Positions 1 to 14,451 of a stretch of 32,000 bases of DNA are shown in pieces. The DNA comes from Candidatus Hermodarchaeota archaeon (lineage in GTDB: Archaea; Asgardarchaeota; Heimdallarchaeia; Hodarchaeales; Hodarchaeaceae): the NCBI GenBank assembly GCA_048886185.1, contig JBHLKY010000018.1:67992-99991 (forward strand). The letters run 5' to 3'. Made by a program: the position numbers and the translations under genes. The notes beneath the pieces were generated by a model. It searched no databases. It saw nothing but the letters and a program-made list of their open reading frames with translations, and had not been told where the DNA came from. Numbering within the stretch: position 1 is the stretch's first letter; each line of letters starts with the position of its first letter.

Positions 1-1
1 A

Positions 2-1381
2 TGGGAGGGACTCGGATCAGGAAATTTATTTCAAAATATGATTATTGGAGGGACAGATAAAAATGGAAGAAGAGGTGATAACGAAATATCAATGTTAATT
101 TTACAAGCAGCTATAAATTGCCAAACAATACAACCAACTTTATCAATATGGTATGATGATTCTCTTAGTGAGGAATTTCTTTTAAAAGCTGTCGAATGTG
201 TGAAAACTGGATGTGGTTTCCCCGCTTGGTTTAATCTCAAAATCTATATCCAACATGAATTACAAAAATCTGGATTACCAGTTCCTGTTATTAGGAAATA
301 TGCTGCTATGGGAGGCTGTACCGAACCAACCATAGAAGGGATGAGTTATGGAATTGTTCAACCAGGATTTATTAATCATGGGAAATTACTTGAATTAGCA
401 ATGTATGGGGGAAAAGATTTACGTACAGGATTGCAATTCACTGAAACAAAGATCCCTCAAAACTATAAAGAAGTGATTGAAGCTTATAAAACTCATTTAA
501 AAGTATCTATTCAGAATTGGCAATCTTACTGGAACATCGTTATGGCCGCTCATCGACAGACCTGTAATCTAATTTACTCTTCTGTTTTAATCCAAGATTG
601 TGTAGAAAGAGGTTTATCTCTTGATGATGGTGGTGCAATTTGCAATGAAGTACCGACTACTCTTTCAACAGGCATGGTAAATGTTGCAAATTCTCTTGCT
701 GCAGTAAAAAAGCTTGTAGAAGATCAAAGACTGTATACAATGGCAGATGTTATAGAAGCTTGTAAAAGTAATTTTAGCAACAATGATGAAATGAGAAGAA
801 AGGCCCTTGATGCTCCTAAATGGGGTAATGATGATGATTATGTGGATGAGATTTTTATCGATCTTTTTAATACCTACTGTGATTTTGTAAAGAATGGGAT
901 AAATTACCTAGGTAAACCATACGATCCATCAATGTTGGCAATTAGTACCCATACACCATTTGGGAAAGTAACAGGAGCAACACCTGATGGTAGACTATCA
1001 GGAGTATCATTATGTGATGGAGTAACTTCACCATTCCCTGGAACTGACACCAATGGACCAGTTGCTACAATCTTATCAGCAGCGAAAGTTGACCATACTA
1101 AAATACGAGGTGGACTTCACAATATGAAATTCCATCCTAGTGCTCTAAAAGGAATTTCAGGTTCACAAAAATTAATTTCCTTGATTAAAACATATTTTGA
1201 TTACCTTGGTTTTCAATTGCAATTCAATGTAGTTGATACCAAGATGTTAAGGGATGCTCAAAAGAATCCAGATAAATATCGTGATTTAATAGTCAGAGTT
1301 GCTGGATTTAGTGCTTTCTTTGTTGAATTAAGTAAGTCTATTCAAGACCAAGTTATCGAAAGAACAGAGTTAATGCTTTGA
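2..1381 (+). CDS. Glycyl radical enzyme (PFL/GRE superfamily), C-terminal part, 5'-truncated by the window edge; resembles the hydroxyphenylacetate/indoleacetate decarboxylase clade
   Basis: The frame is open from base 2 (WEGLGSGNLFQNMIIGG...), so the ORF-track ATG at 38 is internal. Cys loop GGCTEP (TGT 317-319) and C-terminal glycyl radical motif RVAGFSAFF (Gly codon 1304-1306). The segments QPTLSIWYD, FPAWFN and MKFHPSALKG resemble HpdB as I recall it. Confidence 0.93.
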   Translation, partial: WEGLGSGNLFQNMIIGGTDKNGRRGDNEISMLILQAAINCQTIQPTLSIWYDDSLSEEFLLKAVECVKTGCGFPAWFNLKIYIQHELQKSGLPVPVIRKYAAMGGCTEPTIEGMSYGIVQPGFINHGKLLELAMYGGKDLRTGLQFTETKIPQNYKEVIEAYKTHLKVSIQNWQSYWNIVMAAHRQTCNLIYSSVLIQDCVERGLSLDDGGAICNEVPTTLSTGMVNVANSLAAVKKLVEDQRLYTMADVIEACKSNFSNNDEMRRKALDAPKWGNDDDYVDEIFIDLFNTYCDFVKNGINYLGKPYDPSMLAISTHTPFGKVTGATPDGRLSGVSLCDGVTSPFPGTDTNGPVATILSAAKVDHTKIRGGLHNMKFHPSALKGISGSQKLISLIKTYFDYLGFQLQFNVVDTKMLRDAQKNPDKYRDLIVRVAGFSAFFVELSKSIQDQVIERTELML

Positions 1382-2334
1382 TGACATTGATACCAGATAA
1401 TAAAAGTCCATTATCCTTCAAAAATGAAGAAACAATAATTTTTAATATACAAGATTATTGTGTGGATGATGGGCCAGGAATAAGGACAGTGATCTTTTTT
1501 AAAGGCTGTTATCTTCGATGTCATTGGTGTTCAAACCCAGAAAGTCAATTATTTGAGCCAGAAATTTTTTACTCGGGACTAAAGTGCAAAAAATGTAGAA
1601 AATGTGAAAAAACATGTCCAAATTCCAGTATTGATTTTTCTAATATAGAATTCCCACTTTTTAACAGAAATATTTGTTCAATCTGTGAATCAAAGATTTG
1701 TACTAAGGTGTGTCCTGAAAATGCTTTAAGAACTGTTGGTTACCCTATTACAGTTTTAGATTTACTTAAGAGAGTAAAAAAGAATTCATTATTATTCAGG
1801 AATTCCGGAGGTGGGATTACTCTCTCAGGTGGTGAACCACTGGCTCATATAGCCTTTATTAGGGAATTCTTAAAGAAAACTACGGCATTAGGATTTTCTG
1901 TTGGGATAGAGACTTGTGGTTTTTTTAATTGGCAAAGGGTGATCGATATTATACCAAATATTGATTTTTTCTTTTTTGACTTGAAGATTATGGATTCAAA
2001 ATTTCATAAAGCATTAACAGGGGTAAATAATGATAAGATTCACTTAAATCTTAAAAAATTAAGTCAAACTGAGGCCAAAAAAATTACTATTTCTATCCCA
2101 ATTGTTCCAGGTATTAATGATTATCTAGAAAACATTAAAAAAACCGTTAATTTATGTACAGAATTTGGAATCAAAAAAATTCGGTTTCTAAAGTATCATG
2201 AATGGGGAAGAGGTAAATATGAAGAATTGGGTCGTCAATATTTGCTAAATGAAAGAATGAAACTACAAGAAAATGATCTTAAAACCTTTGAAAAATTGGC
2301 TAAAGAAGCTGGTCTACAAGTTACTATTATTTAG
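1381..2334 (+). CDS. Glycyl-radical enzyme activating enzyme (radical SAM) with a ferredoxin-like insertion
   Basis: DGPGIRT, CxxxCxxC (CYLRCHWC), NPESQ, two extra Cys clusters (CKKCRKCEKTCP; CSICESKICTKVCP) and GGGITLSGGEP. The ATG overlaps the GRE stop (TGATG); alternative TTG start at 1378. Confidence 0.95.
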   Translation: MTLIPDNKSPLSFKNEETIIFNIQDYCVDDGPGIRTVIFFKGCYLRCHWCSNPESQLFEPEIFYSGLKCKKCRKCEKTCPNSSIDFSNIEFPLFNRNICSICESKICTKVCPENALRTVGYPITVLDLLKRVKKNSLLFRNSGGGITLSGGEPLAHIAFIREFLKKTTALGFSVGIETCGFFNWQRVIDIIPNIDFFFFDLKIMDSKFHKALTGVNNDKIHLNLKKLSQTEAKKITISIPIVPGINDYLENIKKTVNLCTEFGIKKIRFLKYHEWGRGKYEELGRQYLLNERMKLQENDLKTFEKLAKEAGLQVTII

Positions 2335-2338
2335 CATA

Positions 2339-2370
2339 TACCAACCTTTTTTTTGAAGAATGTGTTGGTA
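2339..2370 (+). terminator. Possible terminator after the GRE/activase pair
   Basis: TACCAAC (2339-2345) and GTTGGTA (2364-2370) form an inverted repeat enclosing a T8 run, directly after the activase stop. Oligo-T is the usual archaeal terminator signal. Confidence 0.3.
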
Positions 2371-2590
2371 GTACAAAGAAAGGGAAATATTCTGGTATAA
2401 ATAAACAAAAAACTGAAAAATCGCAACACAGGATATTTATGGGTTAAATGCTTGTGACCATTACATTAAGTTAAAATCCTTTTAAAACTATGAGAATTCT
2501 TAAATTCCATTAATTATCACTTAAACAGCAATTTCATCTTCTTTCTAATCCTTACAAACCATTATGAGAAATGTTTGAACAATTCTTCTT

Positions 2591-5500
2591 TTACTTTAGA
2601 AGATCACTAGTGCCATAAATTTTTTCATAAGCTAAGATAATTTTTGAGATTAATTTCCTGATATCAATAATCTTTACTATGATTGTACCTTTCTCTGAAT
2701 TTTCATTATTCATGAGCTTGTGAACAACATCTACTTTTTCACGAATCTCGTCAAGAAATTGAACAATTAATGGAAATACATCTTGATATATCAAAATATT
2801 TAATGTTAAGTCCTCTTTACCTCCCCTTGCTTGAGGCCGCTGTAGAGTAAAACCAAAACAGAGGGATTTTAGAAGAAGGTTTTTTGATAATAGAAAGTCA
2901 AAATTTGAAGTCATTTCTCCCTCAAAGTCTTGAATATCACCTATTACACCAAAAGATCTGTCAGACAATTCGATTAATTTGGAAAGATTATCCTTTAATA
3001 TTTCGGGGATTATGATAATTGGAATTGGGCCACGTCGCTGATCAAAAAAAGCTATAACTACCCCGATTGTATGAATATCTAGAAATTCAAATGCTTCCGT
3101 TTCGCTAACTTCAGAGATTTGATTAAGTACTAATTCTTTATCCAAACCAATCAATTCTGGTTTCCTAAAGATCCTGAGGTAGATAAGTGATCCAAAAATC
3201 GTTGAGGCAATTGAGATCCCAAAAATCATCACAATAATTATCGGATCAAATAGCCTTGTCTCTTTTTCAAAATGAAATTCTTTTATTCTATCTGGATCAT
3301 TAAGTATATTATAAGTAATCCCCGTATTTCCACTGCTATCAGTTGTTTCAATATAGAATATTATTGCTTTAGATGTATTATTATGCTCAAATGGAATAGT
3401 TACTGAATAACTATGAATATCATTAGTCATATTGACCGAGAGGAGTGACATCTTTGCAGCTTGCCAATTAGGATTGCCATTTTGCTGAAAACTAGCTTTA
3501 ATACCTAATAATGTTATTTTAGTTTCTGTTATTTCTCTAAAATAATAGTAAAGAAATACTTCTTCAATTTCAGATCCATAATCGATAATATTTGAAAGAA
3601 ATGTTATATTAGTAGGATTAATGTAATCATTAAAGCCAATAGTTGGATTCCCTACAACACGGGGCGGACTTTTGTCTTCTACATGAAATGAAAAGGTAAA
3701 ATCAACATATATCATATATTCCTTATCGTTATAATCTAGAAAACAAGCCGCTTTTACTTTGGTTATGAGAGTTTTCCCTAGATAATTATCATAAAACTCG
3801 TTTAAGGGTAGATTATAATCTAAAATCCATATTGAATCGTTAATTGGACTTCTTTGAGCATAATAAATTATTCCTGAGGAATCATTAATCAAGAATTCTA
3901 CTGTAACAATTGGATTGAGACTGTAAGTAACCACTTGAAATTCATATCTTCCTTCATCAAGGTAAATACCATTATCATCGATTATTACAGGTTGCACATT
4001 GCAACTCAGAATGTATGGACGACTTTCGACATAAATCACTTTCAGATTCACACTTTTTCCTAGATCTGTGCCATCAAAAGGAGTTATTTTACATTTCCAG
4101 TACTCTCCTGGTGATGTTTCAGATGATGGTATGAATGTTTTATTTTGAGAAGCGAAAACTTCCTCCCATTCACTAGTTTCTAATCGGCAGAACCATTGAA
4201 TCTTTGATTGGTCAGTATCTATTGGTTGATCGCTATCCTCAAACTCATAAAAAAGTGAAATAATTTCATCTTCAATAAAAAAAACTTGTCCCACCAACGT
4301 AGATCTTATTTCTGGGATAATATGACTACAACTTGAATTAAAGATATATGAATAATTGTACACCCTAGGGGGAACATTAAGGATGAGGATAGCTCTTGAA
4401 GTTTGCTCAATTCCATAATTTAGTCCATCCTTTGGTTTAACTGTAACAAACCAACGATCATTTTTTACCAAATAAGTGGCTGGTACTTGGTGAGAATCAT
4501 TATGGAGGGGTTGTAAAACGTCGTTTTTATACCAGCGTATTTCAGTCCCTCCTTCACTATCACCATCACGATCATAAAAACTATATTGGACATAAAGAGT
4601 ATCATTACTACGAATAAGAGCTTCAAAACGATCTTTATTACTTGAAAGTTGTAGCTCTGTAATTTCAGGGTAATGATTTGGTACACTTGAAATTATTTCA
4701 TTAGATGTTCCTATATTCTCTTCTGTATCATTAGCAATTATAACATAGTGAAAAATGCCTTGACTTATCATCAAAGCATTAGTCATATATCCATTACTGG
4801 AATTTTCCATCACACACCATAATTTATTTTGTGGAACACCAGCAGCAAAAGTAATATTGACAATGACAGTATCTACTTCCCCCCAAGGGTCGCTTACATT
4901 TACTTTGAAGGTTCCGTTTTCCCCAAGTGTTGGATAATAGACTGGAGTACATATAACAGGAGTAATAAAGTCCTTGTCAAATGAATAATACTTGATATTT
5001 GAAGGAGAGTCAATATAATTCCCATTGGAATCTGAAGAATTTGTAATTTGAAATTGATAACATCTCTTATACAAAACTAGGGTTTTGTATAACCAATATG
5101 ATCCGTTATTCATCATTGAAAATTCTGTGCCATTAATTGAGATGTGTACTGTATCCACACTAGATAAGACATCTCTAATATCAGCCCAAAATATGCCTGT
5201 ACCATTCCCCAAATCATCTACTCCATGGTCAATAATTAATGGAGGATCTGTATCATATATTTGGGTAAAATTAACTTCAGCCCAGACTTCAGAACACCAA
5301 CATTCTCTATCTTGTTGTGGTAACGCTCGTAACATTACCCCTATCTCCATTGTATTCACTTCATCCCACGTCCATTTTGATGAAGTATTGGGATTAGTCG
5401 GGTAATTCGTAGAATGATTATTCCAGTTGTCTGAAGGTTCATTCAACGATCCAAGGAATTTTTTATCGTATGTACGTAATACTGTGCAGGCTCGAGCATT

Positions 5501-5992
5501 AGTAAATGATATACTAGTTCGAACGCGAATATTTAATGTTACAGAGTTGATAATACCTGAAATACCAGTAATATTTTGAGATTGATATGTATCTGTGTAC
5601 GAAGTGGCTGTAGAATAATCCTCAATAATAAAAGAACTGTCATTATTATCTGAGACAACTTGCCAATGAATAACTCCTAAAGGAATTTCAGAAGGAATTT
5701 CTGTTATAGTGCCATTACTAATAGGTTTTAATACTGTTAAATTGAAGTTACTAGCTAATTTATAACTAGGTTTCTTTCTAGCGGACGAATTTAGACAATT
5801 ATTTCTCAATTTGGGTATAAATTGATAAAATTCTTGTTTATATCCATTCAAAATAGCTTTACAGCAATTATATCCAGAATTGACATTCAAAGATTCAAAT
5901 GTTTCAGTGCAAAGTGGAAAGAAGAAGAATGTTATGTTTGTCATAGTACCAATAATTAGAAGAGATATGACAATTTTTTTGAGATCCTCCAC
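2591..5992 (-). CDS. Large single-pass membrane protein: beta-rich/Ig-like ectodomain, TM helix, cytoplasmic longin/uDENN-like domain
   Basis: 1133-aa ORF with a GTG start and an N-terminal hydrophobic segment. Paired internal repeats (Y.F.D.D....I.W....W...V.P.DG...G twice). Many N-x-S/T sequons. TM PIIIVMIFGISIASTIFGSLIYL at about 3176-3245. Cytoplasmic IGVVIAFFDQRRGPIP motif at about 3026-3050. Confidence 0.85.
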   Translation of the reverse strand: MEDLKKIVISLLIIGTMTNITFFFFPLCTETFESLNVNSGYNCCKAILNGYKQEFYQFIPKLRNNCLNSSARKKPSYKLASNFNLTVLKPISNGTITEIPSEIPLGVIHWQVVSDNNDSSFIIEDYSTATSYTDTYQSQNITGISGIINSVTLNIRVRTSISFTNARACTVLRTYDKKFLGSLNEPSDNWNNHSTNYPTNPNTSSKWTWDEVNTMEIGVMLRALPQQDRECWCSEVWAEVNFTQIYDTDPPLIIDHGVDDLGNGTGIFWADIRDVLSSVDTVHISINGTEFSMMNNGSYWLYKTLVLYKRCYQFQITNSSDSNGNYIDSPSNIKYYSFDKDFITPVICTPVYYPTLGENGTFKVNVSDPWGEVDTVIVNITFAAGVPQNKLWCVMENSSNGYMTNALMISQGIFHYVIIANDTEENIGTSNEIISSVPNHYPEITELQLSSNKDRFEALIRSNDTLYVQYSFYDRDGDSEGGTEIRWYKNDVLQPLHNDSHQVPATYLVKNDRWFVTVKPKDGLNYGIEQTSRAILILNVPPRVYNYSYIFNSSCSHIIPEIRSTLVGQVFFIEDEIISLFYEFEDSDQPIDTDQSKIQWFCRLETSEWEEVFASQNKTFIPSSETSPGEYWKCKITPFDGTDLGKSVNLKVIYVESRPYILSCNVQPVIIDDNGIYLDEGRYEFQVVTYSLNPIVTVEFLINDSSGIIYYAQRSPINDSIWILDYNLPLNEFYDNYLGKTLITKVKAACFLDYNDKEYMIYVDFTFSFHVEDKSPPRVVGNPTIGFNDYINPTNITFLSNIIDYGSEIEEVFLYYYFREITETKITLLGIKASFQQNGNPNWQAAKMSLLSVNMTNDIHSYSVTIPFEHNNTSKAIIFYIETTDSSGNTGITYNILNDPDRIKEFHFEKETRLFDPIIIVMIFGISIASTIFGSLIYLRIFRKPELIGLDKELVLNQISEVSETEAFEFLDIHTIGVVIAFFDQRRGPIPIIIIPEILKDNLSKLIELSDRSFGVIGDIQDFEGEMTSNFDFLLSKNLLLKSLCFGFTLQRPQARGGKEDLTLNILIYQDVFPLIVQFLDEIREKVDVVHKLMNNENSEKGTIIVKIIDIRKLISKIILAYEKIYGTSDLLK

Positions 5993-6291
5993 TTATTAAG
6001 ACTCCAACTTCTCTCATTTTAAGAATGAATTTTTCTGACCTTATTATCAATCACACAATTGATATAATACTCAGATATTCAAAAGTGAAATAAAAAGACA
6101 GGAAGTGTCACTTTATGTGAGAGATTTTTTATTATAAAAGATAATATATTAAAGCACATTAGTATCATAAAATAATAATGTATGTTAGTAATAATTTAAT
6201 TTAAATATAAACTAGACTGGTTTGATAAAATATCTATTTTCTTATCCATCAATCTTAGGTTAATGATCCATAATGTCTCAGAAAATATCTA

Positions 6292-6930
6292 ATGAATTAT
6301 TTAGATAACTTCAAAAGTTTAAGTAAGAAGAAAAAATTGAGTAAGATGGGTATCATTGAAGAACCAAGAACTTTTTTGTATTACCAAAATCAATTTCCTG
6401 ATCGCGAACCCCTTATAATGTTTGGGGGATGTATTTTTCAAAATAATGCTGATTCAACCAGTGAGGCAATTCATGACTTAAAAAAACTTTTCAAAAGCCT
6501 ACTAGATTCTATAGAACAAGCCTATTTAATTCGTTTCAAGATATCCGAGGTATTAAGGGGAATAACAGGTGAACTGAATACTGAACTCACAGATCTTCAA
6601 CAAAGACATCTGGAACATGCCCAAGATTATCACACTCATTTTGGGAAAAACCGTCAGCTTCGATTACTCATGATGCGGCAATTATATAAATTGGGACTTA
6701 GAAATGCTGTATGGTTTACTTCTAATAAGATCCCTCCTTTCCAGCTTTTCTTCTTGCACTGGTTAGAAACTATTTTAAATGAATTTTTCTTGGCAGATCT
6801 ATTAAACAGTCTTGCTCTTAATTTAATACCTAGATTAGGATTAAGTGCTCAAGCTCATACGCTTTTAACAAAGTTATCAGCTGAGCTTTCGATCTACGTT
6901 CGTGACACTCAAATTCGATATACCATTTGA
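6292..6930 (+). CDS. Hypothetical protein, predicted helical
   Basis: 212-aa ATG ORF filling the gap with no competing long ORF. No motif recognised. Confidence 0.65.
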   Translation: MNYLDNFKSLSKKKKLSKMGIIEEPRTFLYYQNQFPDREPLIMFGGCIFQNNADSTSEAIHDLKKLFKSLLDSIEQAYLIRFKISEVLRGITGELNTELTDLQQRHLEHAQDYHTHFGKNRQLRLLMMRQLYKLGLRNAVWFTSNKIPPFQLFFLHWLETILNEFFLADLLNSLALNLIPRLGLSAQAHTLLTKLSAELSIYVRDTQIRYTI

Positions 6931-7109
6931 CCTTATGATTATTGGATTAAGATAAAACTCATTCAAGTAACAACGAATTTATATGCTTTCATTCGGTTCT
7001 TGTTTTGTAATAATACTATCTATTCCTTCAAGACACCAAGAGTTTTCTAATTACAAGGTAGATTTTAAACCAAATTCAAGTTTTCCATGCATCTTCAATC
7101 GATGGAATT

Positions 7110-7808
7110 TTATAGTTTTACCTTCTTCAGATCATTAGAGGTGCCTTTATGTATTGATTCAAGCTTTTTATTAGTTTCTAAGAGGATTTGTATACTCTTT
7201 TCAATTTTTTTAAGCCTATTCTCAACTTCTTTAAATTTCGATTCAAACTTCTTAGCCTGAGATTCAGATTTTTTTTGATAAGAATTTACTTTCATGAAGT
7301 GAGATTCTACTTGCTTGAATTGTTTATTAATATCATCAACCTTAACAGTTATTCCGGAGTCATCTTTTGAGACTGGAATAGTAAGCTTGGGAGGAGCTGG
7401 TGGAGGAACTTCTAGCGATTCCTGTTCGATAATAGGAGGAGGAGGAGGTTGAGATGATGCTTTTAGGGGGGAATATTCAGAAGGTAATGGTTTGGGAGTT
7501 GTAATTGGCGGGATAGAATAGGATGGACTGGGTGGGGGAGGTGTTACTGGAGGAGGTGGAGTATGGGGACTTTGTGTATGGATAGAAGGAGATTTTGGAG
7601 GAGAGTCGGAAGGGGGAAAAGGAGGAACAGATGAACGTTCAGGTGCCCTTATTGGGGGGGGAGGTTCCTTAAAAGATTCTTGAAGATCTAATGGAATAAT
7701 TGGTTTTATTTCATCAGCTTCACGATCTGTAAGTGCTTCTTCAGCCCCACAATGAGGGCATGGAAAACTCATTACATAATTCCTACATTTTTTGCAAACT
7801 GGACTCAT
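7110..7808 (-). CDS. Zn-ribbon + proline-rich linker + coiled-coil protein
   Basis: N-terminal CKKC-x7-CPHC. Central P/S-rich tract (PPPPVTPPPPSP, QPPPPPII, VPPPAPPK). C-terminal heptad-like K/E/L-rich segment. Confidence 0.85.
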   Translation of the reverse strand: MSPVCKKCRNYVMSFPCPHCGAEEALTDREADEIKPIIPLDLQESFKEPPPPIRAPERSSVPPFPPSDSPPKSPSIHTQSPHTPPPPVTPPPPSPSYSIPPITTPKPLPSEYSPLKASSQPPPPPIIEQESLEVPPPAPPKLTIPVSKDDSGITVKVDDINKQFKQVESHFMKVNSYQKKSESQAKKFESKFKEVENRLKKIEKSIQILLETNKKLESIHKGTSNDLKKVKL

Positions 7809-8384
7809 AATGAGTCAACTCAATTTCTGAATTCTTAATTCAAATTTTCTTGATTTATTATATATGCTAGCTTTTTCACTTGGGAAAAACAATTGAATTT
7901 TGCTTTAAGTTTTCTAGCGATTTTGTCGGTTTTAATTAGTTCCCTGACAATCTTCATGCTTTTGTTATCTGGGTTAATCTTTTCAATGAATGTTACAGTT
8001 GTTAAGGTATTTAAATTTTTCAATTCTCTCTAAATTGAGTACAAGGAGGGGATCCTTTTTTCGTTCATAAATTCCATCATTCATGTAGACTTATTATGAT
8101 GATCATTCAAAGATTAAACTCTTTTCCTCTATTTTTCATATATAAATTGGATTTATAACCTTTGGTTTCTCTTTTACTGATTTCAAAGGCATTTGAAATG
8201 GTAATAAAATAGTATAAAGACAGTTAATAAAAAACTAGATATATTTTCATGTGATAATAATAGCCTCAGCTCTACTTTCACTAACTTTTTAAAAACTAAA
8301 CCAAACCTTAAAGTTTAGTATTGTACTAAGAATTCAACATCATTCCCTTGGTTAAGTAGGTAAAAAGAGTCCTAGGTCACAAAG

Positions 8385-8392
8385 TTTATAAG
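8385..8392 (+). promoter_or_regulatory. Archaeal TATA box candidate for the fak-plsY cluster
   Basis: TTTATAAG preceded by purine-rich CAAAG, about 20-26 nt before the ATG at 8411. A downstream ATG at 8452 is an alternative start. Confidence 0.45.
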
Positions 8393-8410
8393 TATTGAAT
8401 TGCGAAATTT

Positions 8411-9460
8411 ATGCAAGTAATACACGAAAAAAAAAATGAGTTGATTTTTGAGATGGTATTTCAAGAATTCGCTCAAGAAATATATCCAGAAGTGATTACT
8501 GGAAAAGATCTTTATTATATGCTAAAACTAGCTTCCCAAAAGCTAGAAAAATATATTGAGATACTTAATGACATAAATGTATTTCCTGTACCAGATGGAG
8601 ATACAGGAATTAACATGCACCAAACTTTTCAATCTATTATCAGGGAATTGAATAATTTAGAATTTTATGATCATTGTGGAAAAATTATTTGTTCTGCAGC
8701 AAAAGGAGCTTTTTTTGGCAGTATTGGTAACTCTGGTATAATTCTAGCTGAATATTTTCGTGGACTAGAACAAGAATGGAAAAATTCATGTACTATTGAC
8801 GGAAAACTATTTTCTAGAGGCTTATTTGCAGCAGCAAAATATGCTTACCAAGCTGTTGAAAAACCTAGAGAGGGAACTATTCTTACAGTTGGAAGAATTA
8901 TAGCAGAGACAGCAGATGAATGGATTAAGACAGTAACAAATCCTTTTGAATTATTGTTTATTGTTTTTGAGGAAGCTAAAGCAGCTTTATTAAATACACA
9001 TAGAATTTTACCGGAAGCAAATGTTGCAGGGGTTGTTGATGCTGGAGCAATTGGCCTAGTGCTAATGTTTGATGGATTTATCGAAGCTATGGTTAATAAA
9101 TATCCATCTAGTGCTCTCCCATTATATACAATTGATGATGACCTAGCTCCTTTTTTGAAGCTAAAAATTGATTTCTCACTAATTAAGCATGAGTTTGAAG
9201 TAATCTTTAAAATCTCTGGTTTAAAGAAACCTATGGATAATCTTAAAGTTGAACTAAAAAAAGAAGGATCTTGTCTTCTAATTATTAGTAATGATTCAGT
9301 TTCTGAAATTAAAGTTCATATCCACTGTACAGATCCTGATAGAGTTATATCGAAAGTAAAAGATTTTGTAAGCCATATAGAAGTAGATTCAATTAAATCA
9401 CTAAATGAACAAAATTACCAACTGTCAAAGCGTATCAAAATGAAAAATGGGAGTGAATGA
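8411..9460 (+). CDS. fakA: DAK2-domain protein, fatty acid kinase catalytic subunit FakA-like (short form)
   Basis: Signature INVFPVPDGDTGINM, GNSGIILAEYFRG, AYQAVEKPREGTILTV and VVDAGAIG, plus middle-domain KVHIH. At 349 aa it lacks the C-terminal domain of the roughly 550-aa Firmicute FakA. Confidence 0.85.
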   Translation: MQVIHEKKNELIFEMVFQEFAQEIYPEVITGKDLYYMLKLASQKLEKYIEILNDINVFPVPDGDTGINMHQTFQSIIRELNNLEFYDHCGKIICSAAKGAFFGSIGNSGIILAEYFRGLEQEWKNSCTIDGKLFSRGLFAAAKYAYQAVEKPREGTILTVGRIIAETADEWIKTVTNPFELLFIVFEEAKAALLNTHRILPEANVAGVVDAGAIGLVLMFDGFIEAMVNKYPSSALPLYTIDDDLAPFLKLKIDFSLIKHEFEVIFKISGLKKPMDNLKVELKKEGSCLLIISNDSVSEIKVHIHCTDPDRVISKVKDFVSHIEVDSIKSLNEQNYQLSKRIKMKNGSE

Positions 9461-10353
9461 ACACGAAAATAGGCGTTGTAACTGACAGTATGTGTGATTT
9501 ACCATCAAGCACTTCTGAAAAATATGGAATTATAGTTGTCCCAGGTATTGTATATGTTAATGGAAATCCCTTCCATAGTGGTGTGGATATTCATCCTGAA
9601 GATATCCAAACCATAATAGAAGACAAAGAGAAAAAAATTCAAACAGGAGCACCATCTCCTGCTGCTTATTATATGGCCTACGAGAATCTATATGATAAGG
9701 TAGATATTATATTAAGTTTACATTGCCCTATCAAACATTCAGGAGTGTTGAACGCAGCCAAAGCAGGTGCAAGACGTTTAGAAGACTCATCTCGGGTTGT
9801 TCACTTTGAGTGTGGAGTCGCGACTATTGGTTTAGGAATTACAGCTGTAGCAACAGCAATCAAATCACAACAAATCGAAACTAAACAGGAATTAATACGT
9901 CTAGTTCAAGAGTATTGTACAAAGATCCAGATAATAGGAACCCTAGAGTCCTTTAAATATCTTCAAAGAAGTGGTAGATTAGGCCTAAAAGTTGCGGGTT
10001 GGATTGCTAGTACTTTATCTATAAAACCTGTTCTTTTGATGAGAAATTCTGATATATTTCTGTTAAAAAAACCCCGAGATAGAAAGGTGGCTCTTAATCA
10101 GCTTATTTATAATCTATCTAAGAAGATCGATAAAGAAATTAATCCAAAAATTATTGGAATTAGTCACTTCGGATGTGAGGGAGAATTAAATGAAATAGAA
10201 AAGAAAATAAAAGGAATACTGCCAAATCATATGATTATTAGAGGTTATGCAGATCCAATGGTTGCTGCTAATACTGGACCAGGATTAGTATTAATAGCCT
10301 ACTTCGCTAATTTTATGGATAATTTAGATAATGGAATAAAAATAAATGCTTGA
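9457..10353 (+). CDS. fakB: DegV-family fatty-acid-binding protein (FakB-like)
   Basis: IGVVTDSMCDLP, QTGAPSP, HSGVLNAA, LQRSGRLG, LSIKPVL and NTGPG. ATGA overlap with the fakA stop. Confidence 0.9.
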   Translation: MNTKIGVVTDSMCDLPSSTSEKYGIIVVPGIVYVNGNPFHSGVDIHPEDIQTIIEDKEKKIQTGAPSPAAYYMAYENLYDKVDIILSLHCPIKHSGVLNAAKAGARRLEDSSRVVHFECGVATIGLGITAVATAIKSQQIETKQELIRLVQEYCTKIQIIGTLESFKYLQRSGRLGLKVAGWIASTLSIKPVLLMRNSDIFLLKKPRDRKVALNQLIYNLSKKIDKEINPKIIGISHFGCEGELNEIEKKIKGILPNHMIIRGYADPMVAANTGPGLVLIAYFANFMDNLDNGIKINA

Positions 10354-11011
10354 AATCATATTTTCAGGAATATTTGGCTACTTAACAGGATCAATTTTCA
10401 TTTCTTATTATTGGGGAAAAATAAATGGTATTGATTTAACAAAAGAGGGGACAGGGCAATTAGGCGCATCGAATACAGGTCGAAACTTGGGATGGCCTGC
10501 TATGGTAGTAGTTGGGTTATTTGATATATTAAAAGCCACAATTACTCTTACAATCTTGCATTTCTTTTTCAATCATATGGTTCCTTCTCCCCATTATGAA
10601 GTTTTATTAATAACTGGCAGTTTAGGGATTGTTTTAGGCCATATAAAATCCTTATGGATTTGGTTAGAAAAACATGATTGGTATGGAGGAAAAGGAGGTG
10701 CACCCTTTGGAGGAATTCTTTTGTTTCTATCATTGGAAAGCTTCATTATTTTATATGTTGTATTAATGGTTTTTCTGCAACTACTAAAGCTGTTTATATT
10801 GAAAGGAGGATCATATGATAACTTCTCAACAAATGTTATTGTTGTTTTATTGTCTCCTTTTGTCATTCTTTGGTTTACAGGAAAAATTTTATACTTCATT
10901 TTAGTACTCCTAATAATTGGTACAATCATTTTCTTTGAAAGGGAGAAAATCGCTAGTGTACTCACGATTACATTATTAAAGGGATCTAGAGAAGCAATAG
11001 ACGAATCATAA
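10346..11011 (+). CDS. plsY: Acyl-phosphate:glycerol-phosphate acyltransferase PlsY-like membrane protein
   Basis: GYLTGSI, GTGQLGASNTGRNLG (motif 1), FDILKA, LGH and GGKGGA (motif 2), in a multi-TM protein. Overlaps the fakB stop by 8 nt. Motif 3 is divergent. Confidence 0.85.
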   Translation: MLEIIFSGIFGYLTGSIFISYYWGKINGIDLTKEGTGQLGASNTGRNLGWPAMVVVGLFDILKATITLTILHFFFNHMVPSPHYEVLLITGSLGIVLGHIKSLWIWLEKHDWYGGKGGAPFGGILLFLSLESFIILYVVLMVFLQLLKLFILKGGSYDNFSTNVIVVLLSPFVILWFTGKILYFILVLLIIGTIIFFEREKIASVLTITLLKGSREAIDES

Positions 11012-11062
11012 TAAGCTGAACGTATCTAAAAATTTTTTAAGAAAATTCCCCTTTGTAAGAAT

Positions 11063-11866
11063 ATGAGTATTGAGCGAGCAATTTATGAAATAAAAACAAA
11101 GCACGGAACAGCCCGTCTAATAAATAAAACTGTGGATCGAAGGGGTCTTCCAGTTCTTTTTGTTCATGGATTTGGTAGTTCACCTGAAATTTGGTTTAAA
11201 TATCCTGATAGCCTTGGAAAATTCTTTTTACAAAAAAAAGAGATTGATGTATGGAGTTTAGGATTGTCAAACGCTATTAGTGGTGATATTGAGGTTCTCG
11301 CACAGGAAGATCTCTACACTTCATTGAGCTTTATATTCGAGAGGAGTGAAACACTGATTCATATCATTGCTCATAGTGTCGGGGGAATCATAGTGAGATT
11401 TCTTTTATGTCCCCATTTTCAGCATTCTGATTTAAAACCTGAAGAACTTGTTCAAGGAGTTTCCCTTCTATCTGTACCAAATCATGGAACTAATAAATTT
11501 AAGAGTGATAGAATTTGGAACACAATGAGTCTTATTACTAATTATATTAGGTTTAATCAATTATTTGTTCAAGTACTTCGATCAAGTGAACTTATTAATG
11601 CATTGAATAACCAGAAACCATGCTTGAATCCCAAAGTAAAGTGGCAAAATGCGGTCAGTTCTTTCGATAACTTAATTGAACCGGAAAGTATGAGATTTAT
11701 GGAAGAAGAATTGTTAGATATAGATCTTATACAAAAAGAGTTTCCCTGTGATCATATTGTTTACCCTTTAAAATGGCTTTTTAATGACAATTATCCACCC
11801 ATCCATAGATACTCACCTGTTGCTGAGTGGATATATAAGAATGCCTTCACCAAAATCAGTCAATAG
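11063..11866 (+). CDS. Alpha/beta-hydrolase, lipase/esterase-like
   Basis: Oxyanion VHGF, nucleophile elbow AHSVG (11369-11383), PNHGT, and candidate catalytic Asp (FDNLI) and His (CDHIV). No evident signal peptide. Confidence 0.85.
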   Translation: MSIERAIYEIKTKHGTARLINKTVDRRGLPVLFVHGFGSSPEIWFKYPDSLGKFFLQKKEIDVWSLGLSNAISGDIEVLAQEDLYTSLSFIFERSETLIHIIAHSVGGIIVRFLLCPHFQHSDLKPEELVQGVSLLSVPNHGTNKFKSDRIWNTMSLITNYIRFNQLFVQVLRSSELINALNNQKPCLNPKVKWQNAVSSFDNLIEPESMRFMEEELLDIDLIQKEFPCDHIVYPLKWLFNDNYPPIHRYSPVAEWIYKNAFTKISQ

Positions 11867-12136
11867 CAAAACTTGTGTTTATAATATTGAGTTTTTAAGA
11901 TAGTGTCTTCGAATTGAACCTCCTTGACCTTGAATTAAAGAGAAAATTAAATGGCATGTAAATATTGTTTGCTACAAATTTATTATGACCGGGAAATCAA
12001 TAAGAAATCTTTCATTGATGTTGTAATGGATGAATTTTCAAACGAATTTTCCAGTTATGTGTACTTAATCATAGCAAAAGATAGTTGTTAATACATAATC
12101 GTCGTAAGCATCTCTAAATATGTTTTTCTTGTTGTA

Positions 12137-12676
12137 TCATTTATATATCTGTAGAAACTCATATTTTTCGGGATTATCTTCTTTAATTGCTTCAGCAGCA
12201 AGTTTAACATCAATTTGGATAATTGGTTCTAATTGTTTCCTCAATTCTTTCGGATCCTGTGATTTTCTTGTGAACAAAAATAGAGCTTTCCACAGGTGGC
12301 CTTCAACAAGATTGATTGCTTCTTTTGTATTTATCTTGAATACTGGATCAAAATTTTCTCTAAAAGTATTCTCATCATTAGTTTCACTCACAGAGAAAAT
12401 TAATAATTTCCAGATGTGTTCTCTGACTTTACCTGTGTCAATTTTGACTATTGGTTCTAGTTGTTTCCTCAATTCATCTGGATCCTGCAATTCTCTTGTT
12501 AAAGAGTATAATGTTGACCAAAAAGAGTCTTCAACTAGTTCAAATGCTTCATTTGAATTTATTTTAAATATTGGCTCATATTTTTCCCTAAAAGCCCCCT
12601 CATCACCGATTGTACTGGTTAAGGAACAAACTAACATCCAGAAATGCTTTTTGATCTTTTCTTGGTATTCTCCCAT
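12137..12676 (-). CDS. Helical repeat protein (2 x 76 aa, each with 2 sub-repeats)
   Basis: QDPDELRKQLEPIVKID and QDPKELRKQLEPIIQID, plus FREKYEPIFKIN and FRENFDPVFKIN. The DNA repeat has a 228-nt period (12223 vs 12451). Confidence 0.85.
   Translation of the reverse strand: MGEYQEKIKKHFWMLVCSLTSTIGDEGAFREKYEPIFKINSNEAFELVEDSFWSTLYSLTRELQDPDELRKQLEPIVKIDTGKVREHIWKLLIFSVSETNDENTFRENFDPVFKINTKEAINLVEGHLWKALFLFTRKSQDPKELRKQLEPIIQIDVKLAAEAIKEDNPEKYEFLQIYK
12223..12487. repeat. Intragenic direct repeat, 228-nt period
   Basis: ttggttctaattgtttcctcaattctttcggatcctg (12223) vs ttggttctagttgtttcctcaattcatctggatcctg (12451). Confidence 0.9.
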
Positions 12677-12990
12677 ATCATCACCGATTTGAGTCTATGG
12701 ATACTAAAGTTCTTTCTTCTTGTTTTATTAAAAAAGATAATTTAAACATATTATATTTTGTCCATCATGTTAAATCTTTTCTGTCAGTAAAAATATATTT
12801 TTCGATAATATGTCTTTAAAGTATTCTAAATTAGTGTAAGCTAGTAAAAATAGTGATAAATGCGTCACAGGTATATATCACAATTGGCTTTTTTTCCGTA
12901 TTTGTTTCAAGAGATACGAAAAAAAATCAAGAACTTTTATGGATACTGGTAATCCAACAAATGGTAATACTTCAGTTCAAATTTATCCTA

Positions 12991-13386
12991 TTATTGATCA
13001 TTCTCCTTTGGGTCTGATTTTTTTATTACAATAATTTGATCTGTTCCATCAGGACAACAAGAGTCGACGAATCCGATTACTTTTTGCATCCGAGCGATGA
13101 CCTTTGTAACAATAGTTTTTCCCTCTGAGGTTATTGCGTAGGTTTTTATCCTCTGATCGCGGTCCTCTTCGCCCGTGTTCGTTGTTTCGAGAATAAAGCC
13201 TTTTTCCAATAATTTCTGTAGTATTTTGTAGGTGGCCCCAGGTGTAGGTGACCAATCCTCGCCTAAATCTTCTTTGACTTGATTAACAATCTCTGTCCCT
13301 GAAACATCGTTATGATTATGGAGTACTAGTAAAAATAATGCTTCTGTAGGGGTGACATCGAGGTTTTTGCCAAACATGAGATCCAC
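12991..13386 (-). CDS. PadR-family transcriptional regulator with a C-terminal Cys-Cys pair
   Basis: ALFLLVL...SGTEIV...PTPGATYKILQKLLEKGFI...KTYAITSEGK winged helix, ending in FVDSCCPD. GTG start, or ATG at 13377. Confidence 0.88.
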   Translation of the reverse strand: MDLMFGKNLDVTPTEALFLLVLHNHNDVSGTEIVNQVKEDLGEDWSPTPGATYKILQKLLEKGFILETTNTGEEDRDQRIKTYAITSEGKTIVTKVIARMQKVIGFVDSCCPDGTDQIIVIKKSDPKENDQ

Positions 13387-13435
13387 TTATTCATAATATA
13401 CCTAATTCGATATATTTAAAAATGTTTGTTATAGG

Positions 13436-13456
13436 GAATATTCCTGTGGAATATTC
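13436..13456. promoter_or_regulatory. Perfect inverted repeat in the padR/arsM divergent promoter (candidate operator)
   Basis: GAATATTCC-TGT-GGAATATTC. Each arm also contains the palindrome GAATATTC. Confidence 0.6.
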
Positions 13457-13500
13457 TACTAAATTATTCCTGATCTCTACTATATATGGATTGAAGCAGA

Positions 13501-14451
13501 ATGACAGAACAGAAAATCAAAAAATTGGATGAAAAACAGCCCAGCAGTTATTCCTGCTGCGAATCAGGTTCAAATGAAACAGAAAGCACTGTTCGTGAAT
13601 CTAAAACAGCCCAGGCAGATGAAATTCGTAAAAAAGTTCGTAATCAATACGCTACAATTGCTTCAGGTAACTTTGATCCTGAAAATCCCATTACGGTGGA
13701 AGAATCGTCCAGAGAAGCAAGTGGCTATACCGAGTATTCACAAGATGAACTTTCAAGTCTCCCTAAAGGTGCAAATCTCGGTCTAGGATCTGGTAACCCA
13801 GTTGCATTAGCAAATATCCAAGAAGGGGAAACAGTTGTAGACTTGGGTTCTGGAGCAGGTATAGATTGTTTCTTAGCTGCCAAAAAGGTTGGTGAGTCGG
13901 GAAAAGTTATCGGAATTGACATGACACCTGAAATGATTGATAAGGCCCGAAATAACGCAAGACAAAATAAGTATCACACAGTTGAGTTCCGACTTGGCGA
14001 AATTGAACATCTACCTCTTGCAGACAATTCTGTTGATGTTATTGTCTCTAATTGCGTCATCAATTTGTCTCCTGATAAATCACAGGTGTTTAGAGATGCC
14101 TATCGTGTTTTAAAACCAGGAGGCCGATTGGTTGTTTCTGATATAGTTCTTAATCATGAATTCCCCGAAGTTGTGAAAAAAGCTCTAGATATGCCCGGGT
14201 GTGTATCGAGAGCGTGGATTAAAGAAGACTATCTAGGTGTAATTGAGGCAGCTGGTTTTGAAAGAGCGGAACTTCTCGAAGCGGAGCTTATCAAACCTCA
14301 AAAACAGCCTATTGAAGTAGGTGATGGTTTGAGAATACGAAAGCTTCGAACATACGACAAAGAGGTTGAAATCGAACTTACTCCAGAAGAGGATGAACGA
14401 TTACTCAATACAATTATGAAGGGCCACATTCGAGCTTATAAACCATTTTAG
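13501..14451 (+). CDS. arsM: Arsenite methyltransferase ArsM-like
   Basis: LGLGSGNP, VDLGSGAGIDCFLAA (SAM motif), VIGIDMTPEMI, FRLGEIEHLP, SNCVINLSPDK, VLKPGGR and PGCV. N-terminal SCC. Confidence 0.88.
   Translation: MTEQKIKKLDEKQPSSYSCCESGSNETESTVRESKTAQADEIRKKVRNQYATIASGNFDPENPITVEESSREASGYTEYSQDELSSLPKGANLGLGSGNPVALANIQEGETVVDLGSGAGIDCFLAAKKVGESGKVIGIDMTPEMIDKARNNARQNKYHTVEFRLGEIEHLPLADNSVDVIVSNCVINLSPDKSQVFRDAYRVLKPGGRLVVSDIVLNHEFPEVVKKALDMPGCVSRAWIKEDYLGVIEAAGFERAELLEAELIKPQKQPIEVGDGLRIRKLRTYDKEVEIELTPEEDERLLNTIMKGHIRAYKPF

Follow-up and report, generated by a model that had tools for sequence, protein, structure and literature searches.

Surface proteins of Hodarchaeales archaea with a predicted folliculin-class longin domain as their cytoplasmic tail

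Can events at the surface of an archaeal cell be coupled directly to the small GTPases within it? This question is raised by one gene in a stretch of 32,000 nucleotides from a Candidatus Hermodarchaeota archaeon (GenBank assembly GCA_048886185.1, contig JBHLKY010000018.1, forward-strand positions 67,992 to 99,991), hereafter the window, which comes from contig 18 of a 4.84 Mb, 96%-complete genome. The list of open reading frames and their translations shows the gene as one uninterrupted reading frame on the minus strand, 1133 codons long (window positions 2591-5992), beginning with GTG. Full-length orthologs at 54-79% identity are found in Hodarchaeales/Heimdall metagenome-assembled genomes (MAGs), and therefore the gene is real and conserved; its nearest proteins carry the labels Hodarchaeales, Heimdallarchaeota or Promethearchaeota MAG. 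The original prediction, made from the nucleotide sequence, had described a beta-rich ectodomain of about 900 amino acids, one transmembrane (TM) helix and a tail of about 190 residues. This plan was borne out, as an N-terminal hydrophobic segment is followed by an ectodomain of ~890 residues that AlphaFold2 models as all-beta, one TM helix (residues 917-938) and a tail of 195 residues. Two conclusions are firmly supported. Firstly, the product is a type I single-pass surface glycoprotein with an immunoglobulin (Ig)-like stalk. Secondly, its tail, as modelled, is a longin domain standing by itself, and belongs to the FLCN/SMCR8/NPRL2 class, the longins of the GTPase-activating protein (GAP) type, in which both the GP motif and the loop arginine that mark this class are kept.

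The tail and its longin relatives

The fold of the tail was predicted from an alignment of 74 tails (A1), in which tail position 1 is residue 938. The resulting AlphaFold2 model is confident, with a predicted local distance difference test score (pLDDT) of 91.3 and a predicted template modelling score of 0.87, and has strands at tail positions 38-47, 51-58, 90-99, 102-114 and 122-132, and helices at 60-80, 143-158 and 164-189. This predicted arrangement is that of a longin domain, a five-stranded antiparallel sheet in the order beta-beta-alpha-beta-beta-beta-alpha-alpha, as had been anticipated for the tail. A search of this model against 48,161 PDB representatives with VIA-align placed a Lokiarchaeota longin at the top (8yqg; Z 13.7, root-mean-square deviation (rmsd) 3.1 Å, 141 residues), with FLCN second (6nzd_H; Z 12.1, rmsd 2.6 Å over 135 residues). 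Below these came chains from the C9orf72-SMCR8 complex (7o2w_A; Z 11.7), the longin of Lst4 (4zy8; Z 11.1), GATOR1 (8fw5_B, presumably NPRL2; Z 10.2), the FLCN-FNIP2 complex (6ulg_N; Z 10.1), the C9orf72-SMCR8-WDR41 complex (6lt0_B; Z 10.0), the SEA complex (8adl_S; Z 9.7) and DENND1A (6ekk_A; Z 9.3). Various chains of TRAPP, SNARE and adaptor longins and of roadblocks followed at Z 6-8, the SNARE, TRAPP and AP longins at 7-8, and Mon1-Ccz1 longins were also among the matches. Except for 8yqg and 4zy8, the subunit names are those the chains are assumed to bear, as the tool returned entry titles only.

Other structural comparisons agreed. The top Foldseek match of the model was the FLCN-FNIP2 complex, with GATOR1 also matched, and its shape neighbours in the ESM Atlas were Folliculin, C9orf72-like, Avl9/uDENN (DENN) and NPR2 clusters, together with an Asgard GTPase fusion. 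The longin half of the original longin/uDENN-like assignment therefore stands, but the class is narrowed to the GAP type represented by FLCN, SMCR8 and NPRL2, rather than generic uDENN, with no DENN core behind the domain. Other identities were considered and rejected: a LOV/PAS sensor was matched by Foldseek only at an rmsd of 10-13 Å, and a GAF sensor reached a VIA Z of 6.4 at most. A longin SNARE would not have its TM helix before the longin and nothing after it, nor lack a SNARE motif, and VAMP7, Sec22 and SYBL1 scored Z 7-8. A DENN-type guanine nucleotide exchange factor (GEF) or DENN module is inconsistent with a protein that ends seven residues after longin alpha3 and matches no DENN family.

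Two published marks distinguish GAP-type longins. The GP motif, which closes the beta1-beta2 loop or opens beta2, is reported for FLCN, NPRL2, SMCR8 and C9orf72, and as missing from non-GAP longins (PMC12290439). It adjoins the arginine finger, and both are also present in soluble Asgard longins of the FLCN/SMCR8 type (PMC12290439, Traffic 2025); in SMCR8 this arginine is R147, equivalent to R164 of FLCN, in the betaL4-betaL5 loop of the longin (bioRxiv 10.1101/2020.04.16.045708). Both marks occur at the expected positions in the tail. The motif FFDQRRGPIP, which had been singled out at the outset, occupies residues 982-991 as described, while the candidate arginine finger, R1056, is tail position 119, between the model strands 102-114 and 122-132, and is equated with FLCN R164 and SMCR8 R147 by position and motif, not by residue-level superposition. 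It stands within the triplet A-R-G, which is presumably also what human FLCN reads at R164. Across the 74 tails, G40, F46, G51, P54 and R175 (tail numbering) are invariant, and the nearly invariant positions include G12, D14, Q48, P52, P116, R119, E123 and N124; the first two of these are the juxtamembrane G949 and D951, in the context R-K-P-E-x-x-G-x-D-K. When the tails are aligned jointly with soluble Asgard longins, G-P alone is invariant, with F, F, and the R and G of x-R-G conserved at 90% or more.

Pfam assigned no family to the whole protein, or to the tail and N-terminus searched separately. Among the 74 tails, 23 matched Folliculin (PF11704) weakly (E up to 0.1, best E 2e-4), and no other Pfam family was matched by more than two. 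Scanned in six frames with PF11704, the genome gave three places, one encoding a soluble protein of 437 amino acids, and two being tails of paralogs of the studied gene, which scored 18.7-19.2 bits against a cut-off of 23.3. As the studied tail likewise does not reach the PF11704 gathering score, it is classed as related by structure and motifs, and not as a member of PF11704 or an ortholog of folliculin. Comparison by hhalign aligned the tail with the soluble PF11704 protein at E 3.5e-5, pairing R-P-x-A-R-G-G of the former with D-D-P-E-A-R-G of the latter. The tail profile also matched the N-terminal domains of soluble proteins of 250-500 amino acids, lacking a TM helix, from other Asgard lineages (E 1e-9 to 1e-13), and a joint profile of tails and soluble longins matched the solved Lokiarchaeota longin 8yqg over the whole domain (E 1e-7). 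This was the sole solved chain reached by sequence profile, as the profile of tails alone returned only coiled-coil noise from the PDB sequences, and the genome's soluble FLCN-like protein had no match among them.

That soluble protein, encoded on contig 6 (L001:625-1938, minus strand), has an N-terminal longin that scores 27.8 bits, above the PF11704 gathering score, and carries the motifs FDxxHGP and PEARG. A Roadblock/LC7-like gene lies ~570 bp away (L001:2508-2984, minus strand).

Membrane topology and ectodomain

The tail had been proposed to be cytoplasmic, and three observations agree. Kyte-Doolittle hydropathy identifies two hydrophobic segments, at residues 6-29 and ~914-941, and the basic and hydrophobic N-terminus is shared by the genome's other full-length paralogs. 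Firstly, the protein contains 30 NxS/T sequons, where shuffled sequences give an expectation of 13.3 +/- 3.2, and 29 of these are N-terminal of the TM helix; the ectodomains of all nine of the nine paralogs in the genome are likewise twofold enriched in sequons (z about 5), and their tails are not. Secondly, the basic stretch LRIFRK is directly C-terminal to the TM helix. Because the sequons are enriched on the N-terminal side only, and basic residues follow the TM helix, the part of ~890 residues is placed outside the cell, and the 195-residue tail inside. Thirdly, the closest relatives that the tail has in other Asgard lineages belong to soluble proteins lacking a TM helix, a further argument for a cytoplasmic tail. 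Sequence evidence thus puts the tail on the cytoplasmic side, and would have the ectodomain N-glycosylated. The protein combines the features of a type I tandem-Ig surface glycoprotein: an N-terminal signal, outer beta-sandwiches, one TM helix, and sequon enrichment outside only.

The ectodomain was modelled by AlphaFold2 over residues 25-916, from a 47-row alignment, with a mean pLDDT of 75. This all-beta model comprises seven beta-sandwich domains, at residues ~131-246, 250-340, 348-440, 441-540, 541-658, 659-772 and 776-898. The Ig-like beta-sandwiches of the original prediction are therefore present, but not as two pairs of repeats, since there are seven domains, and local alignment with shuffles, applied to the 1133-residue protein to detect internal repeats, found no pair of domains with z above 3. 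Similarly, the N-terminal unit that had been likened to a jelly roll is a beta-sandwich predicted with moderate confidence (residues 131-246), to which no named relative could be attached, a feature search of the ESM Atlas giving weak leads only. Residues 25-131 have no usable model (pLDDT in the 20s), and a search for relatives of residues 30-250 returned orthologs only; the four-cysteine head region may be a ligand-binding tip.

The remainder of the ectodomain is shared with paralogs to differing extents. The domains of residues 250-440 are common to few paralogs, and residues ~460-1133, which include the membrane-proximal domains of residues 659-898, constitute a conserved C-terminal module, of which the part at 460-650 is repeated up to eight times in paralogs. 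The repeat-type domains (441-658) have an acidic, Asp-rich motif, a conserved Trp and P-x-DG, with invariant W/D alignment columns, and gave generic Ig_2, Big_9 and PKD leads in the ESM Atlas feature search. Foldseek matches to the ectodomain were generic multi-Ig/FN3 chains only (contactin, gp130, titin, mastigoneme and GhpA).

Family distribution and genomic surroundings

Modules of the FLCN-like and NPRL2-like longin type are already known in Asgard archaea (Liu et al. 2020 preprint; PMC12290439), as are their GP and arginine motifs, whereas a membrane-tethered Asgard longin on surface proteins was not found described in the literature searched, which is not proof of its absence. An exhaustive phmmer search with residues 938-1133 identified relatives of the tail in 145 clusters at 50% identity. 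The match is at the extreme C-terminus in essentially all of them, in proteins that range in length from 200 to over 5,000 amino acids, and one type of tail is common to very different ectodomains. Between paralogs the tails are 50-55% identical, compared with about 35-45% for the shared module of the ectodomain. The source genome has nine copies of the tail, in open frames of 542-4,204 amino acids, several of which are cut by contig ends; all follow the same plan, and the studied gene is the smallest complete member. Eight of the nine keep both GP and x-R-G, and both are lost from the third gene of a trio on contig 13.

This trio is a tandem array of tail-bearing genes (contig 13, ~1-14398), encoding >2227, 1565 and 1008 amino acids. 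The degenerate tail of its third gene, with neither GP nor ARG, recalls the non-catalytic partners FNIP and NPRL3.

Among 301 sampled genomes of the phylum, the tail was present in 19 of the 20 other genomes of the same genus, at 1-10 copies each and in frames of up to 10,431 amino acids, and several other families of the same class also carry copies (E about 1e-33); the remainder of the sample contained only weak matches, of the soluble type. This distribution strongly indicates that the tethered family has undergone expansion in Hodarchaeales, and that several further families of the class possess it.

Operon context is described as seldom helpful (PMC10933270), and the neighbourhoods of the studied gene's orthologs differ between genomes. 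Ras-family genes are so common in the source genome, with 63 matches, that proximity to them is uninformative. The genome also gave 11 strong Gtr1/RagA matches, and certain paralogs are close to Rag-type GTPase genes. On contig 9, a paralog of 2131 amino acids (L027:3650-10972) starts 24 bp after a gene for a 300-residue Gtr1/RagA-type GTPase on the same strand, with a Rag-like gene of 564 amino acids just upstream of the pair on the opposite strand; this paralog and the Gtr1/RagA-type gene are the best candidate for a receptor-GTPase pair in the genome. A second paralog in this genome has a Rag-like gene 8.6 kb away, and in four genomes of the same genus seven further tail loci have a strong Rag-type gene no more than 10 kb away, in several cases at a distance of 0.1-3 kb. 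About 9 of 32 tail loci are therefore proximal to a Rag-type gene, against about 1.3 expected, although these include orthologous loci that represent only three to four independent paralog lineages.

The coordinates of the features of the studied gene are collected in Table 1. The window around it is AT-rich, with a GC content of 30-35%. Convergent with the gene are the 3' part of a PFL-like glycyl radical enzyme and its radical-SAM activase (window 2-2334, plus strand), a pair with no functional link to the studied gene. On its other side are an open reading frame of 212 amino acids without a Pfam family (window 6292-6930), and a 232-residue protein (window 7110-7808, minus strand) whose sole match, to a coiled-coil region of plant NET2A at E 1e-3, is weak and below the cut-off. 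Further away, adjacent DAK2/FakA-like, DegV (FakB-like) and PlsY-like glycerol-3-phosphate acyltransferase genes (window 8411-11011, plus strand) resemble a bacterial-type fatty-acid route, which is notable for an archaeon.

Table 1. Features of the studied gene, with residue numbers of the protein and positions in the window
Feature	Residues	Window positions	Strand	Basis
Whole gene, 1133-residue type I membrane glycoprotein (stop codon 2591-2593)		2591-5992	-	List of open reading frames, translation, full-length orthologs
Signal peptide or N-terminal anchor (N-terminus basic, with a hydrophobic stretch)	1-29	5906-5992	-	Kyte-Doolittle windows to 2.1 over residues 6-29
Head region, with Cys28/43/44/66	30-130	5603-5905	-	pLDDT in 20s; 63-79% identical in orthologs
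First beta-sandwich	131-246	5255-5602	-	AlphaFold2 strands 131-244, pLDDT 60-80
Two Ig-like beta-sandwiches	250-440	4673-5245	-	AlphaFold2, pLDDT 80-90
Two Ig-like domains of the family repeat type	441-658	4019-4672	-	AlphaFold2, pLDDT about 90
Two membrane-proximal beta-sandwiches	659-898	3299-4018	-	AlphaFold2; kept in all paralogs
Transmembrane helix	917-938	3179-3244	-	Hydropathy to 2.36, translation checked; LRIFRK follows
Juxtamembrane segment, short helices	939-974	3071-3178	-	Tail alignment A1; AlphaFold2 helices at tail positions 15-24, 27-32 and 34-37
Predicted longin core, beta1-beta2-alpha1-beta3-beta4-beta5-alpha2-alpha3	975-1126	2615-3070	-	AlphaFold2, VIA, Foldseek, Atlas, profile match
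GP motif G988-P989, start of beta2 (tail positions 51-52)	988-989	3026-3031	-	74 tails: Gly invariant, Pro at least 90%
A1055-R1056-G1057, candidate arginine finger in beta4-beta5 loop	1055-1057	2822-2830	-	Arg at least 90% conserved

Proposed function and its alternatives

The longin of folliculin (human FLCN, which with FNIP2 is a GAP for RagC/D; yeast Lst7-Lst4; 6nzd, 6ulg and 8dhb) has the same fold as that predicted for the tail, and both have a GP motif preceding beta2 as well as an arginine between beta4 and beta5. In addition, the relatives of the studied tail give a weak but specific PF11704 signal, some tail paralogs adjoin Rag-type GTPase genes, and the tail resembles yeast Lst7 in being a longin-only unit (bioRxiv 10.1101/2020.04.16.045708). 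Unlike FLCN, however, the tail is fused behind a TM helix to an ectodomain of ~890 residues with predicted glycosylation, has only 12-14% identity and is below any Pfam threshold, is without a DENN domain or a known FNIP-like partner, and is predicted to be at the plasma membrane rather than the lysosome.

Other systems share fewer of these properties. The soluble Asgard FLCN/SMCR8-type longins (PMC12290439; Liu et al. 2020 preprint) are linked to the tail by profile homology and the shared GP and ARG motifs, but are proteins of 250-500 amino acids without a TM helix, in which the longin is N-terminal and often followed by an extension, whereas the studied longin is a C-terminal tail. The Lokiarchaeota Roadblock-Longin protein (8yqg) is the best structural match and has the GP motif, but it lacks the loop arginine and any membrane tether, and is joined to a roadblock domain. 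The SMCR8-C9orf72 and NPRL2-NPRL3 (GATOR1) dimers are of the same fold class, and have an arginine finger in the equivalent loop, yet they are soluble and heterodimeric, form complexes of several subunits and have DENN or other domains at the C-terminus, and their clients are Arf/Rab GTPases or RagA. The longin SNAREs (VAMP7, Sec22 and Ykt6) also present a longin to the cytoplasm on a single-pass membrane protein, but with the order reversed, the longin being N-terminal and the TM helix C-terminal; they have no ectodomain, and their longins lack GP and ARG.

The proposal that best accommodates these comparisons is of a surface protein with a GAP-type longin tail on the inner face of the membrane that regulates a small GTPase, to which a probability of about 0.5 is assigned. 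The tail would keep its longin, as a regulator of GTPases, on the cytoplasmic side of the plasma membrane and engage a small GTPase, most likely one of the Rag type, on which it would probably act as a GAP. R1056, next to the GP motif, would serve as the arginine finger that stimulates GTP hydrolysis. The tail would probably function as a longin-longin dimer, either with a second tail, or with a soluble longin or roadblock protein; a co-fold of two copies of the tail, run without controls, scored 0.00 and counts neither for nor against dimerisation. Finally, the state of the ectodomain would control the activity of the tail, such that ligand binding, adhesion or clustering sets where and when the GTPase is switched off.

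Several points weigh against this proposal. Eukaryotic longin GAPs function as heterodimers that have further subunits and a DENN or other domain at the C-terminus, and in the studied protein a DENN domain is absent and no partner was identified for it. No conserved neighbours or adjacent GTPase gene were found around the studied gene and two orthologs, and adjacency to Rag-type genes is borrowed from paralogs, the tails of which are 41-55% identical to the studied tail. The tail itself has no Pfam match at E up to 1, and the nearness of R1056 to the GP motif is deduced from the order of strands, not from coordinates. Furthermore, in the profile alignment 8yqg has the GP motif, and no loop arginine. 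As the top match to the fold is without this arginine, a match to the fold does not imply GAP chemistry.

This last point is also consistent with a rather unlikely alternative, in which the tail is a non-catalytic platform that docks a GTPase, a roadblock or longin partner, or cytoskeletal or trafficking machinery to giant surface proteins, for instance to position or cluster them on protrusions, without stimulating GTP hydrolysis. Most longin and roadblock domains are platforms, not enzymes (Tran et al., PMC10933270), the occurrence of one tail under very different proteins fits generic anchoring or coupling, and the third paralog of contig 13 has been kept despite losing both marks. However, no features are better conserved across tethered and soluble forms than the GP motif and the loop arginine, for which a pure scaffold would not readily account, and the GP motif is reported to be absent from non-GAP longins (PMC12290439).

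It is improbable that the tail is instead a GEF-type regulator, promoting nucleotide exchange at the membrane in the manner of the DENN, Mon1-Ccz1 or TRAPP longins. DENND1A (Z 9.3), Mon1-Ccz1 and TRAPP longins are all among its structural matches, and GEF roles have been proposed for Asgard FLCN-like modules (Liu et al.), but the protein has neither a DENN nor a d-DENN domain, and the best matches and both conserved motifs belong to the GAP subclass. There is similarly little probability that the tail is a tag recognised in the biogenesis, sorting or quality control of very large surface proteins, through their secretion, glycosylation or turnover and with no role in signalling, in the manner of the C-terminal sorting domains of other prokaryotes. 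In favour of this, the tail always ends giant secreted proteins, behind their one TM helix, and the studied gene has no conserved signalling neighbours. Against it, known archaeal C-terminal sorting signals are short rather than folded domains of 190 residues, homologs exist as the N-terminal domains of soluble proteins, and several paralogs are linked to Rag genes.

If the tail is a GAP, a broader and more tentative reading becomes possible, namely that the folliculin-Rag switch predates eukaryotes and was first a receptor system of the plasma membrane. Surface proteins of Hodarchaeales like the one studied would then be transmembrane GAPs regulated by ligands or contact, and their tails, dimerised by engagement of the ectodomains, would switch off Rag-like GTPases. 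This would represent a class of single-pass receptor in prokaryotes with a small GTPase as its output, not a kinase or nucleotide cyclase. The paralogs adjacent to Rag-type genes provide concrete, clonable pairs for GAP assays, and the studied gene, being small and complete, is a convenient construct, though without a neighbouring GTPase.

In eukaryotes, the longin GAP complexes folliculin, GATOR1 and C9orf72-SMCR8 control nutrient signalling and membrane traffic. The family described here is predicted to place a longin of this type on the cytoplasmic side of the plasma membrane, beneath ectodomains that are large and adhesin-like. This points to a link between events at the cell surface and the switching of small GTPases in the archaea most closely related to eukaryotes, a connection that bears on models of the origin of endomembrane signalling. 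Hence GTPase switching of the eukaryotic kind may be connected directly to the surface of these archaeal cells.

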